Below, in pieces: positions 275 through 4,293 of a stretch of DNA of 4,733 nt; the stretch's first letter is position 1; each line of letters opens with the position of its first letter. A program made the translations under genes and the position numbers. Below the pieces are notes generated by a model. That model was not told the DNA's origin, did not search any database, and was given only the letters and a program-made list of their open reading frames with translations. Origin of the DNA: a virus (taxonomy: Duplodnaviria; Heunggongvirae; Uroviricota; Caudoviricetes); the IMG/VR virus record IMGVR_UViG_2703718787_000005; one strand, 5' to 3'.

Positions 275-556
275 TTATCCAGGAAATTGTCGTCTGGAGT
301 GGGTGACACTTACTATTTCAACACTCGAAGCGGCTACACGGTACAGAATGATATAGTTAGGATGAGCTACAATCTCACGCAAGCCAAACGCTCTGTCGCT
401 TGATGGGTATAAGTACGGATGTTCAGATAAAGCTAAAACACATGTCTCAATGCGAATCTTTAGCCTGCGTGCGGCATGGAGATTTTCTTTTGCAATATAG
501 GCTACGATCTGACGTAAATCATCACGTGCAGAAGGTAGCCATAAAATGGGCAGCAT
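275..556 (-). CDS. parE2: Type II toxin, ParE/RelE superfamily (ParE-like), 93 aa
   Basis: ORF track protein MLPILWLPSARDDLRQIVAYIAKEN...EIVAHPNYIILYRVAASSVEIVSVTHSRRQFPG has the length and motif pattern I associate with ParE toxins (N-terminal DL..I..YIA, central EHPYLYP, C-terminal YIILYRV...VEI..V.H.RR). Its ATG overlaps the upstream antitoxin stop by one base (TAATG at 558..554). The symbol rests on remembered resemblance to the paaA2-parE2 pair of E. coli O157 prophage; no alignment was run. Confidence 0.85.
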   Translation of the reverse strand: MLPILWLPSARDDLRQIVAYIAKENLHAARRLKIRIETCVLALSEHPYLYPSSDRAFGLREIVAHPNYIILYRVAASSVEIVSVTHSRRQFPG

Positions 557-747
557 TACACACTCCCGCTAGTCGCAGCAATTTGGGCAATGAGATTTTC
601 CATTTCTGCCATTACATCATCATGAGGAATTGCAGGGCGCGGATCTGCAAGATTTGCAGCTACTTTTGCACGTAGCCATTCGTTGTAATTATTTTCTTGC
701 TCAACGGTTTCAAACTCAGAAACCATCGGCGAAAGGGCAGTGTTCAT
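556..747 (-). CDS. paaA2: Type II antitoxin, PaaA2/ParD-like, 63 aa (MNTALSPMVSEFETVEQENNYNEWLRAKV...)
   Basis: I trimmed the 84-aa track ORF to the internal ATG at 747..745, which has a strong RBS (AAGGAGGT, 5-nt spacer). The longer version would overlap the repressor 3' end out of frame and has no RBS. The first ~45 residues match my recollection of PaaA2 antitoxin; the C-terminal ~18 residues do not match what I remember. The stop overlaps the toxin start. Confidence 0.8.
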   Translation of the reverse strand: MNTALSPMVSEFETVEQENNYNEWLRAKVAANLADPRPAIPHDDVMAEMENLIAQIAATSGSV

Positions 748-776: not shown

Positions 777-1184
777 CTATGCTCGGTGCCCTTTCTGGGC
801 AGCGAGCCATCTTGCAACAGTGCGCTCCATTGATTCTTTTTTGTCTTTCATGTCTTTAAGCATTTTTTCTTGATCTTCCTCTGGAAATGCTCCGAATGTT
901 TGAAGCAGTTCCATTTGCCTGGGGCCTATTTTCATAGTATCTGGCACCACAACCTGCTCTTCTTCGTTTGGCGGTAACATAAACCAATATGGGGGATAAC
1001 CCGTTACTTCAGAAAGTTTATCAAGATTAGCTGTTGATGGACTTGTGATTCCGTGAACCCACTTTTGTACCGATTGCTGGGCAACACCAATCCTGCGGGC
1101 TAGTTCTGCCTGCTTAAGTCCTGTTTTTTCCAGTACCAATTTTATTCGGTACGTGGTTATTTCAAGGGTGGTCATTCGCTTCAT
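777..1184 (-). CDS. paaR2: Prophage repressor, XRE-family HTH, cI analogue (PaaR2-like), 135 aa, no S24/LexA-like autocleavage domain
   Basis: N-terminal HTH (LEKTGLKQAELARRIGVAQQSVQKWVHG). Divergent from the cro-like gene across a 107-bp operator/promoter region. At 135 aa it is too short for a peptidase S24 domain, and no Ala-Gly / GDSM-type motifs are visible. No Shine-Dalgarno precedes the ATG, so it may be leaderless. The symbol is inferred from gene context and is not verified. Confidence 0.8.
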   Translation of the reverse strand: MKRMTTLEITTYRIKLVLEKTGLKQAELARRIGVAQQSVQKWVHGITSPSTANLDKLSEVTGYPPYWFMLPPNEEEQVVVPDTMKIGPRQMELLQTFGAFPEEDQEKMLKDMKDKKESMERTVARWLAAQKGHRA

Positions 1185-2051: not shown

Positions 2052-3092
2052 ATGGCTAATGCCTGGCTCAGATTATGGCATGACATGCCAAATGACCCTA
2101 AGTGGCGAACAATTTCCAGGGTGTCAGGACAGCCAATCGCAACAGTGATGGCTGTGTATATCCACCTTCTGGTGAGCGCGTCACGAAATGTCACGACATG
2201 TCACGGCGTGTCACTACGTGGTCACATTGATGTCACAACGGAAGATTTAGCAAGTGCACTTGATGTGACGGAAGAAGTAATTGATTCAATTTTGCAGGCG
2301 ATGCAGGGGCGGGTGCTTGATGGAGATTTAATCACTGGATGGGAAAAACGCCAGGTAGCGAAAGAGGATAACGGCAACGTTTCGCAAACCGCGAAATCCC
2401 CGGCAGAGCGTAAGAGAGCACAACGCGAGAGGGAAAAATTACGAAAACAGAATGAGGGGTGTCACGATGAGTCACGCATATGTCACGACATGTCACTACG
2501 AGTCACGACAGATAAAGATACAGATAAAGAATTAAACCCCACACATAACGCGCGCATGCGCGAGAGTGCTCCAACCGGTGAGTCGCATGGTGCGCCGTTG
2601 CAGACAGCCGAACCTGAATACCTGGACGGCCTGAGCGAACCGATCGGGAAATTTTCGATGACTACTGTCTGGCAGCCGTCGTCGGATTTTCGACAACGGG
2701 CAGCAGTGTGGGGTATGGCTCTGCCTGAGCCGGAATTTACACCTGCAGAGCTTGCCGCATTCCGGGATTACTGGATGGCGGAGGGGAAGGTTTTCACGCA
2801 GGTTCAGTGGGAGCAGAAATTTGCCCGCCACGTGCAGCACGTCAGGGCACAGGTAAAACCAGTCAGCAAGGGGGTAAACCATGCAGCAGCACCAGGTGGC
2901 ACCGCATCACGGGCAGTTCAGGAAATTCGGGCAGCACGTGAGCAGTGGGAACGTGAAAACGGATTTATCAGCGACGGAAACGGCCTGGAAGCTGTGGGAG
3001 CTTATGGGGGAGGTGTATTCGAACCGCTGGACTCAGAAGAACGGGGCCGCACCTTCGAAGCTCTGGATTGCCCAGATTGGTGCGATGACTGA
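2052..3092 (+). CDS. Replication initiator (lambda O analogue): replisome-organizer-type N-terminal domain, linker, DnaT-like C-terminal domain
   Basis: I take the start at ATG 2052 (SD AAGAGGTGA upstream); the track ORF begins at an in-frame GTG at 2046. N-terminal motifs W.RLWHDMPNDPKW ... TGWEKRQ resemble the phage replisome organizer N-terminal domain. The C-terminal part (FSMTTVWQPSSDF...FTPAELAAFRDYWMAEGKVFT) resembles the DnaT-like domain common in phage initiators. Two iteron arrays lie inside the gene. Family assignments are from memory. Confidence 0.8.
   Translation: MANAWLRLWHDMPNDPKWRTISRVSGQPIATVMAVYIHLLVSASRNVTTCHGVSLRGHIDVTTEDLASALDVTEEVIDSILQAMQGRVLDGDLITGWEKRQVAKEDNGNVSQTAKSPAERKRAQREREKLRKQNEGCHDESRICHDMSLRVTTDKDTDKELNPTHNARMRESAPTGESHGAPLQTAEPEYLDGLSEPIGKFSMTTVWQPSSDFRQRAAVWGMALPEPEFTPAELAAFRDYWMAEGKVFTQVQWEQKFARHVQHVRAQVKPVSKGVNHAAAPGGTASRAVQEIRAAREQWERENGFISDGNGLEAVGAYGGGVFEPLDSEERGRTFEALDCPDWCDD
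2180..2236. repeat. Iteron array 1: six direct GTCAC-containing repeats at 10/10/10/11/11-bp spacing
   Basis: GTCAC starts at 2180, 2190, 2200, 2210, 2221 and 2232, all in the same orientation and on a helical-repeat period, inside the N-terminal domain coding region. Shares an exact 17-mer with array 2. Confidence 0.7.
2461..2506. repeat. Iteron array 2: five direct GTCAC-containing repeats at 10/11/10/10-bp spacing
   Basis: GTCAC starts at 2461, 2471, 2482, 2492 and 2502, in the linker-coding region of the initiator. This is the position where lambda ori lies within O. Confidence 0.75.
2461..2562. other. Probable origin of replication: iteron array 2, then an AT-rich stretch with GATAAAGA x2 (2509-2536), then a 12-bp perfect palindrome CGCGCATGCGCG (2551-2562)
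   Basis: The iterons / AT-rich / palindrome order is what I recall for lambda ori, but that is recollection. All three elements are directly visible in the sequence. Confidence 0.5.
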
Positions 3093-3546
3093 ACAGCAAA
3101 TCCGTCTGGTCTGTCGTCAGTGCATGGACCGCTGCCGGGCGGGTGAAACGTGGCCCCCGGACCTGGCTGAGTTTGTTGCACTGATTTCGGAGAGTGGGGC
3201 AAATCCATTTGGTCTTACGGTGGATGCAGTGATGGAAGAGTACCGGCGCTGGCGCAATGAATCCTGGCGATACGACGGGAGTGATAAATACCCGTGGCCA
3301 CAGCCTGTGCTGTACCACATTTGCCTCGAGATGCGCACCAGAGGGATTGAACGTCAGATGACTGAAAGTGAGCTGAAACGACTTGCGGAACGACTGTTGA
3401 CCAAATGGGCAAAGAATGTTGGTAACGGCATGAGTGTTCCGCCAGTGCGACGACAACTGGAAGGGCCAAAACACCCGCCAGGGCCAACGCCAATTGAGTT
3501 ACTGAAACAGGAATATGAGCGCCGGAAAGCGGCTGGTTTTGTCTGA
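2881..3546 (+). CDS. Lambda P-like replication protein (helicase loader), up to 221 aa; start uncertain (ATG 2881, 3004 or 3085)
   Basis: The C-terminal two thirds align by eye with lambda P as I remember it (YPW motif; MTESELKRLAERLL vs LTDAELRRKAADEL; FVALISESGA vs FVAWCREEA). Resemblance seems to continue upstream of the ATG at 3085, which favours 3004 or 2881. ATG 2881 has the best RBS (AAGGGGG, 6-nt spacer) but overlaps the O-like gene by 212 nt out of frame. Gene finders that forbid long overlaps would probably call 3085. Confidence 0.65.
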   Translation: MQQHQVAPHHGQFRKFGQHVSSGNVKTDLSATETAWKLWELMGEVYSNRWTQKNGAAPSKLWIAQIGAMTEQQIRLVCRQCMDRCRAGETWPPDLAEFVALISESGANPFGLTVDAVMEEYRRWRNESWRYDGSDKYPWPQPVLYHICLEMRTRGIERQMTESELKRLAERLLTKWAKNVGNGMSVPPVRRQLEGPKHPPGPTPIELLKQEYERRKAAGFV

Positions 3547-3579: not shown

Positions 3580-4293
3580 ATGGAAACCGTTTTTGACGCA
3601 CTGAAAGCACTGAAAAGAGCCTCTTCACAGGAGGTGTCGGCCCGCCTTGGAATCAGCCGCGAAGATGCTGTCAACGAGCTGTGGAAGCTGAAACGCCGTG
3701 GTGAAGCTGATAACAAGGGGTCGATGTGGTGGCTGACGAGTGAGGCAACTGAAATGGCCACAAAAACCACTGCGGAGATGCTGATTAACGCAATTGAACA
3801 GCATGGTCCTCAGTCGGCTGACGAACTGGCGTTAATGTTCGGGATTACCTCCCGCCGGGCGAATTCAACGCTGGCAATGGCAATAAGCAAAGGTCGTCTG
3901 ATTCGAGTAAATCAGAACGGTAAATTTCGTTACTGCCTGCCGGGCGATAATTTACCAGCAGAGCCGAAAGCTGCATCGGTAACGGAAACTGCTGGTAAAG
4001 CCTTTCCTCAGCCAGCAGGTGTTGCGTTACCAGTCCGGGAAGCGGAAACACAGGAAGAAATTAAAACTGAAAGTGTGGCGGTCACAGTGCAGTCACAGCC
4101 GTCGTTCACCAGAAAGCATCCGGATAGTCTGATTTTACCATCGCTGCATGTGGCTAACCGCGAACTGCGCCGGGCAAAAGGTCAGGTTCAGAAGTGGGAG
4201 CGAGTCTGTGCTGCGCTGCGTGAGCTGAACAAGCACCGGGATATTGTCCGACAGATTGTCGATTCCTCCAGTCGTATTGTGTCGGAAAAGTGA
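3580..4293 (+). CDS. Hypothetical phage protein with two winged-helix-like modules and a C-terminal coiled-coil-like region, 237 aa
   Basis: I take the start at ATG 3580 (SD GGAGG, 8-nt spacer) rather than the track's 3556. Two internally similar ~55-aa modules (…[38 protein letters not shown] and …[43 protein letters not shown]), a Pro/Ala/Glu-rich linker, and a charged helical C-terminus. Function unknown. Confidence 0.7.

Follow-up and report, generated by a model that had tools for sequence, protein, structure and literature searches.

The window analysed here is a stretch of 4,733 nucleotides (nt) of virus DNA (Caudoviricetes; IMG/VR record IMGVR_UViG_2703718787_000005), which represents the 4.7 kb immunity and early-right region of a Rac-like lambdoid prophage of Escherichia coli. 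Within it, positions 2460–2548 very probably constitute the core of the theta-replication origin of the prophage and lie where its own initiator gene encodes the linker. An origin-like module consisting of five iterons, an AT-rich repeat and a palindrome had been placed there by the initial annotation, and all three are indeed present in this order. The iterons and the unwinding tract hold as parts of such a module in view of frozen codons, covariation, mosaic phages and a layout like those of ori-lambda and SPP1 oriL, whereas the palindrome does not hold as a maintained part. The module is larger than proposed, and the annotated stretch is very probably the right half of the origin: besides the downstream iteron array (array B), a conserved second array (array A) lies 229 base pairs (bp) upstream in the part coding for the DNA-binding domain and had been missed. 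The elements are as follows.

2052–3092, plus strand: replication initiator gene, 346 amino acids, assigned from Pfam, PHROG, PDB, Foldseek and AlphaFold and from the RefSeq annotation of a 98% relative
2179–2237, plus strand: iteron array A, six copies of GTCAC with cores at 2180, 2190, 2200, 2210, 2221 and 2232
2264–2270, minus strand: single inverted iteron (TGTGACG on the plus strand), 33 bp downstream of array A
2460–2507, plus strand: iteron array B, five copies of (A/T)GTCAC(G/T), from the repeat scan and the frozen codons; units TGTCACG 2460–2466, AGTCACG 2470–2476, TGTCACG 2481–2487, TGTCACT 2491–2497 and AGTCACG 2501–2507
2508–2533, plus strand: A-rich tract, putative DNA-unwinding element, made of ACAGATAAAGAT-type repeats coding for TDKDTDKE
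2534–2548, plus strand: invariant box AAACCCCACACATAA, left edge of the DnaT-type C-terminal module
2551–2562: perfect 12-bp palindrome CGCGCATGCGCG, one allele of a hypervariable GC-rich tract coding for ARMRE

These elements are present; the iterons and the A-rich tract are under purifying selection at the DNA level, travel together with the N-terminal domain (N-domain) of the initiator and code for flexible segments of the protein, and the iteron sequence co-varies between the two arrays. The assignment as an origin is based on the gene context, the repeat statistics together with the helical phasing, the conservation of the arrays, the frozen codons, the covariation and the modularity, and also on the instability of the A-rich tract, the flexibility of the encoded segments and two validated analogues, ori-lambda and SPP1 oriL. 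By analogy with these two origins, binding by the initiator, melting, helicase loading and origin activity would be expected here.

The plus strand of the window contains 13 GTCAC words against 3.75 expected, and they are clustered with up to six per 60 bp, compared with a maximum of three in 1000 Markov-simulated windows. The cores of array B are spaced by 10, 11, 10 and 10 bp and the A-rich tract adjoins the last unit directly. Array A carries the same motif 229 bp away in the same transcription unit, and both arrays are situated within the initiator gene. No other iteron cluster and no comparable AT tract in a coding region were found within the window. The cores occupy all three codon phases, which indicates that the repeat is a unit of DNA rather than a peptide repeat. 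Most relatives have four copies in array A, where the window carries a 21-nt insert relative to phage Evi, equal to seven codons or two iterons; array B varies between three and five copies. Both arrays encode flexible segments that tolerate insertion and deletion of whole iterons, and one relative (L026) has a far larger insert with copies in both orientations. A fixed helical phase between the two arrays was considered and rejected, the spacing among relatives being 219, 227, 229, 231, 238, 239, 247 or 319 bp. An unusual, compressed arrangement is seen in an Erwinia relative (L015), where overlapping CGTCACGTCACGTCAC runs with a 5-bp period and in both orientations lie in both arrays (codons 40–75 and 125–160).

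A scan of one genome per species yielded 39 loci with relatives of the initiator, which show 35–97% amino acid identity in the best segment. Two GTCAC arrays at constant offsets from the start codon are found in 26 of the 39, with array A at +128 to +160 (usually four copies), the inverted copy at +193 and array B at +386 to +418; GTGAC stands at +193 in most relatives. The hosts of the two-array loci include Escherichia, Serratia, Pseudomonas, Bordetella, Chromobacterium, Acidovorax, Gilvimarinus, Aquitalea and others. In a codon alignment of 20 two-array loci with a median pairwise amino acid identity of 72%, the normalised codon entropy is 0.12 in the iteron-core and A-tract codons versus 0.83 at other conserved residues (Mann–Whitney p = 4e-10). 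The codons concerned are TCA (19/20), GTC (20/20), ACG (20/20), GGT (20/20) and CAC (19/19) in array A, and CAC (19/19), TCA (20/20) and GTC (20/20) in array B, with GTC being invariant in 20/20 at three Val positions across both arrays. Val72 in the inverted copy is encoded by GTG in 17/17, and the A-tract codons are GAT (19/19), AAA (17/18) and GAT (16/17). Residues that are equally conserved outside the elements use nearly all of their synonymous codons, so the frozen synonymous sites in the iterons and the A-tract show selection on the nucleic acid itself.

These data bear directly on the explanation that the repeats reflect coding constraint only, that is, that a low-complexity linker contains a repeated peptide motif and that its DNA has no function in cis. 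The segment does encode disordered or loop regions with repeated residues (CHD, SR, VT and DKDTDK), as this explanation would have it. However, the GTCAC cores lie in all three frames, the synonymous positions stay fixed over about 20 genera, with every codon in use at other conserved residues, and the motif classes switch in both arrays together, as described below. We regard this explanation as effectively refuted, its likelihood being practically negligible.

The concerted switch is seen in loci with alternative motifs, which are GTAACG in L007, L027, L029 and L037 and CGAACGC in L033, L035, L036 and L040. Each alternative motif sits in both arrays at the same positions, and the encoded peptides mirror each other (NATERG and NATERD, for example). 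Over 35 loci, the longest word common to arrays A and B has a mean length of 10.6 nt, compared with 5.8–7.6 nt for control segment pairs (Wilcoxon p = 0.0012). The change of motif in both arrays at once suggests that one factor reads both and that its specificity changed in concert.

Mosaic phages provide a further line of evidence. Phages Evi, Tritos and others match the window in the N-domain, the iterons and the A-tract, and have a different C-terminal domain (C-domain) and no palindrome. What Rac-SA53, pPE4 and the PPompW phages have in common with the window is the box, the GC tract, the DnaT-like domain and the P gene; their N-domains are unrelated and come with repeats of their own. Since these mosaics keep the N-domain and the iterons together, the iterons belong with the DNA-binding N-domain, as expected of its binding sites. 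The GC tract, judged from the same comparison, is part of the C-terminal module. BLAST matches to phages break within the A-tract, at 2510–2530 of the window, which marks a mosaic recombination junction.

The A-rich tract contains ACAGATAAAGA twice, at 2508–2518 and 2520–2530. The GC content is 0.30 at 2510–2549, with a strong A-skew (A-rich on the coding strand), and 2509–2548 is the least stable 40-bp duplex of the initiator gene (z = +2.5 versus the window). In every GTCAC-class relative, a run of (GATAAA)n or (GATACA)n is reached within 2–3 nt downstream of the last iteron. The 12-nt unit ACAGATAAAGAT is present in two copies here and in three copies in the E. albertii locus L004 (L001 was also compared), and this change of copy number is slippage-like and gains or loses the linker residues TDKD. 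The box next to the tract, AAACCCCACACATAA, is exact in 88 of 145 loci, including all 80 C-domain relatives (L043–L122) except L101, and it is preceded by N-domains and iterons of at least five unrelated classes. It encodes NPTHN here and KTPHIK in L007, L127 and L128; being read in two frames, the box is conserved as DNA, and it may serve as a module-junction or loading-site element.

The initiator consists of an N-terminal replisome-organiser-like winged-helix domain (residues ~1–100), a basic helix (117–134), a disordered linker (142–195) and a DnaT-like C-domain, a three-helix domain of the type that binds single-stranded DNA (ssDNA). This last domain, at about residues 197–268 (nt 2640–2855), matches PF17948 over residues 201–267 (E=4e-17) and the PDB chains 6aep and 4ou6 (E about 1e-20), and Foldseek gives a template-modelling (TM) score of 0.9 at 58% identity. 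Against the full-length host DnaT model NF002770 the initiator reaches 95.7 bits with a cut-off of 201, and the C-terminal domain alone aligns. By these alignments the initiator is not a full-length equivalent of host DnaT, while its C-domain is clearly homologous to the ssDNA-binding domain of DnaT. The PHROG replication-initiation families 1408 and 3729 match the initiator, and the N-domain matches PHROG 4880 'replisome organizer' (E = 2.9e-5) and has no match in Pfam. The name given by NCBI to close relatives is 'phage replisome organizer', and in one relative (P0107) there is a PF09524 domain; G38P, the replisome organiser of SPP1, is assigned to this family (PMC5737612). Database entries of E. 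coli for the initiator protein (P0001–P0037) are mostly 'partial', which suggests that this multi-copy prophage gene, with its repeats, is a frequent breakpoint of short-read assemblies.

In the AlphaFold model, the predicted local distance difference test (pLDDT) score is above 90 for the N-domain core and the DnaT domain and below 50 for residues 142–195. The N-domain is winged-helix-like in this model; in a Foldseek search with the full model, the DnaT domain alone is matched confidently and the matches to winged helix-turn-helix (HTH) domains are weak. Array A encodes a low-confidence loop (about residues 43–62) between the helix 29–45 and a helix-turn-helix with wing, whereas array B, the A-tract and the palindrome all encode the disordered linker. 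The location of the module in an inter-domain linker, as initially annotated, is thereby borne out, with the DnaT domain beginning at about residue 197.

We propose that the origin would work in the following way. The N-terminal winged-helix domain of the initiator would bind the GTCAC iterons, which, being one helical turn apart, all lie on one face of the DNA, and a nucleoprotein complex would result. On supercoiled DNA, this complex would melt the adjoining A-rich tract (2508–2548), and the DnaT-like C-domain with its ssDNA-binding fold, together with a P-like loader, would deliver the host DnaB helicase to the bubble. Array A (2179–2237) and the inverted copy (2264–2270) would belong to the same system, either by anchoring the initiation complex at another place or in a control function. 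The palindrome at 2551–2562, at the right edge of the melted region, would be at most an accessory boundary or clamp, or a hairpin, and would not be required.

The possible control role of array A leads to a rival explanation, in which the GTCAC arrays are initiator sites that are mainly regulatory (autorepression, a roadblock to rightward transcription, or copy control by handcuffing of A and B) and unwinding takes place elsewhere. Two arrays of the same motif 229 bp apart in one transcription unit would be in keeping with it. In the iteron plasmids P1 (incC/incA) and F (ori2/incC), and in P4 (ori/crr), paired arrays of the same repeat flank or overlap the rep gene, and in the iteron plasmids the array by the AT-rich region fires while the other modulates. 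The origin-plus-control arrays of P1 and F resemble arrays A and B and count for the regulatory explanation; the difference is that both arrays here lie inside the initiator coding sequence, and a control role of array A is putative. When carried by a plasmid, the iterons of lambda ori are able to silence replication in trans (PMC3349717), which also counts for it. However, in all relatives of the GTCAC class the A-rich tract that array B adjoins is conserved and has frozen codons, which is the classic signature of an origin, and the window offers neither another iteron cluster nor a comparable coding-region AT tract. Regulatory and origin roles are compatible, and a regulatory role is most plausible for array A alone; as an account of both arrays, we consider it quite improbable.

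Array A also raises the possibility that the origin is bipartite and partly self-referential, the array forming part of the sequence that encodes the DNA-binding domain of the initiator itself. In the folded domain (residues ~1–100), the residues that discriminate between the iteron classes are those encoded by array A, plus a conservative I/V exchange at 77, and more class-specific residues are located at 103–124, reaching into the basic helix 117–134. If the loop encoded by array A does help to read the iteron, a single change in the DNA would affect the binding site and what reads it at the same time, which would provide a built-in route to concerted switches of origin specificity (GTCAC, GTAACG and CGAACGC) across proteobacterial prophages. 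We hold this possibility to be distinctly unlikely.

Several points weigh against the assignment of 2460–2548 as an origin. The frozen codons prove a constraint at the DNA or RNA level, and operator, copy-control or partition-like roles of the repeats would fit them as well. The match of the N-domain to TIGR01714 phage_rep_org_N is weak (E=3.3e-4, 20.8 bits versus a cut-off of 49.8), and no match of the initiator to PF04492 (lambda O) was found at E ≤ 0.01. The units here are 10–11-bp direct repeats with an asymmetric GTCAC core, whereas those of lambda are dyads of 18–19 bp (18 bp as annotated). Neither DnaA boxes near the origin nor an IHF consensus was found. In the literature, no paper mapping the origin of this initiator family was found, and the Eru paper on non-lambdoid Stx phages is without this module. 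As for the palindrome, the window contains two perfect 12-bp palindromes against 1.19 expected (P(≥2) = 0.35), and several palindrome alleles coexist inside one iteron class, even in near-identical origins.

The palindrome had been thought to be maintained beyond coding constraint, a claim which has to be given up because perfect, imperfect, shifted and 6-nt-deleted alleles occur within the same module. CGCGCATGCGCG starts 2 nt past AAACCCCACACATAA, and the alleles at this place were surveyed in 120 phage contigs anchored on AAACCCCACACATAA alone. The short alleles CGCACGCGAGAG and CGCGCGCGAGAG, which have a 6-nt deletion and no long inverted repeat, together make up about 45% of the contigs. 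The other frequent alleles are CGCGCGCGTGCGCG, which is imperfect, CGCGCGCATGCGCG, which is the perfect 12-mer of the window, and CGCGCACGTGCGCG, which is shifted and forms a perfect 14-mer; CGCGCGTGCGCG is an imperfect form of the palindrome in contigs with the same module. Going by these alleles, the palindrome is evidently variable and dispensable.

Could CGCGCATGCGCG nevertheless have a function in the origin, for example by forming a hairpin or cruciform, by binding a dimer, or as a GC clamp limiting unwinding or positioning helicase loading? GC-rich inverted arms of 5–7 bp recur after the box in three codon phases, with different peptides (ARMRE, AHVRE, GAYAHE, SAFAHE and KRAGA) and variable centres (AT, GT, CG, TG, TA, TT and GG), and a DNA-level tendency toward an inverted repeat at the GC tract is plausible. 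Lambda also has an inverted repeat, with 12-nt arms, at the equivalent place to the right of its A-rich tract. On the other hand, the minimal ori-lambda is not known to need its inverted repeat, and a palindrome can become perfect in the absence of selection through template-switch mutation at quasi-palindromes. Short alleles are carried by about half of the contigs anchored on the box, including near-identical origins of the same class and deposited PPompW prophage records, and (CG)n-rich tracts are intrinsically self-complementary. The number of palindromes is at the chance level, and the stability of the hairpin is unremarkable (−7.8 kcal/mol, z = −1.6 at CGCGCATGCGCG, with z = −1.3 to −1.6 for the region on both strands). 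A functional role of the palindrome is, on balance, doubtful. The second perfect 12-bp palindrome, CAAGTGCACTTG at 2251–2262, lies 14 nt past array A and exactly 300 bp upstream of CGCGCATGCGCG; it was set aside as evidence, as its synonymous sites vary in relatives, and it is probably due to chance.

Read on the minus strand, the palindrome leads into the T-rich complement of the A-tract, and the two together might instead be an intrinsic terminator for antisense transcription into the initiator gene. A consensus scan does return terminator-like sites on the minus strand at 2562–2549 and 2565–2537. However, the tail TTATGTGTGG is a poor U-tract, the terminator-like sites number five versus a shuffle expectation of 2.0, a modest excess, hairpin-free alleles are common, and there is no Rfam match, all of which makes a terminator very improbable. 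Host systems that recognise DNA structures at the origins of phages could be the selective force behind the presence/absence polymorphism of the palindrome, which lies beside the melting tract; Lamassu is reported to sense structured DNA at ori-lambda (PMC12663957).

Comparison with characterised systems places the proposed origin close to ori-lambda in its layout. In both cases the origin lies in the middle of the initiator gene, in the linker between a DNA-binding N-domain and a loader-interacting C-domain, and a P-type loader gene comes immediately downstream. In both, the repeats, which are putative initiator-binding sites here, are followed by an AT tract that is A-rich on the coding strand. 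To the right of this tract stands an inverted repeat, as a perfect 12-mer here and with 12-nt arms in lambda; its conservation is doubtful, as it is absent or shortened in about half of the related origins. The iterons and the AT tract of ori-lambda are within gene O, with four iterons in lambda and six in Stx phages (PMC7466680, PMC3349717), and the number of iterons varies among relatives both in the lambda/Stx phages and in this module. In contrast to lambda, the initiator here is not an O homologue, as seen from the missing PF04492 match; a second array lies within the N-domain coding region, the C-domain is DnaT-like, and the palindrome is short, polymorphic and GC-rich.

The oriL of SPP1 is similar as well. 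It lies within gene 38, which encodes the replisome organiser G38P, and a 356-bp segment of it is necessary and sufficient in vitro (PMC5737612); the organiser binds direct repeats that adjoin an AT-rich DNA-unwinding element, and the loader gene comes next (PMC5737612, PMC6316719). As in SPP1, the repeats and the AT-rich tract of the window are within the initiator's own gene, followed by the loader gene. The differences are that TIGR01714 is below threshold, the host is Gram-negative and the loader is P-like rather than G39P, and a second, distant origin like oriR is not indicated here. Features that characterise origins of the lambda/SPP1 type are found in the module, namely phased repeats, an adjacent tract prone to melting, DNA-level selection, co-inheritance with the N-domain and a downstream loader gene. 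From these comparisons, the origin would work like ori-lambda but outside the lambda O family, with iterons of a different type.

The Rac prophage has been reported to have an active origin, oriJ (PMC3945230). K-12 Rac (ydaS-ydaT-ydaU-ydaV) shares the gene order and the YdaS/YdaT-type regulators with the window. It was rejected as a close model: the N-domain of its YdaU is of the DUF1376 type, and its YdaV, a putative ATP-binding protein, is not P-like. The YdaU-type gene of Rac-SA53 has no GTCAC iterons, and RefSeq annotates no origin feature at the replication region of K-12 Rac.

The initiator gene is surrounded by the following genes.

275–744, minus strand: ParE/PaaA2 toxin–antitoxin pair, directly adjoining the prophage repressor gene
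777–1184, minus strand: HTH repressor
1292–1558: YdaS/cro-like gene
1555–1980: YdaT/cII-like gene
3085–3546, plus strand: P-like helicase-loader gene (PF06992, E=1.3e-15; PHROG 109; 'replication protein P' in RefSeq)
3′ of the loader gene: DUF1627 and DUF977/Ren-like genes

The order repressor, cro-like, cII/YdaT-like, initiator and P-like loader gene is that of a lambdoid early-right operon and is counted in support of the origin assignment. The start of the loader gene overlaps the stop of the initiator gene as ATGACTGA, by which the loader gene is translationally coupled to the initiator gene. The closest database match of the window is 98.2% identical. Related DNA is matched in 2576 of 5426 complete E. 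coli genomes, 658 of which hold most of the module.

Two further observations concern the surrounding DNA. A terminator-like hairpin on the minus strand at 1994–2012 (TGCCGGAAGCGATCCGGTA then TAAATATTTT) lies in the 71 nt that separate the cII/YdaT-like gene from the initiator gene. Its position recalls the terminator of the lambda oop antisense RNA, and it has no match in Rfam; nor has any other part of the window at E ≤ 1. Within the DUF1627 gene, two copies of GTCACA stand 11 bp apart at 4081–4096 (GGTCACAGTGCAGTCACAG), and the pair is retained in at least 34 of the 80 C-domain relatives (L043–L122). It may be an extra site for the initiator or a product of chance.

The analysis provides a precise and testable origin map for a replication module carried by a large share of complete E. 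coli genomes. Prophages of both Gamma- and Betaproteobacteria also carry the module, and no experimental account of its origin was found in the literature. It constitutes an unusually clean case of overlapping codes, in which a cis element freezes synonymous sites over a wide phylogenetic distance, iteron insertions and deletions appear as seven-codon insertions, and iteron 'dialects' change in two arrays in concert. Among origins embedded in initiator genes, the array within the region coding for the DNA-binding domain and the switches of iteron 'dialect' across classes are variant features. The sites of the module mark where the N-domains of initiators are swapped between phages, and they could help to predict replication-incompatibility groups among lambdoid and Stx-associated prophages.

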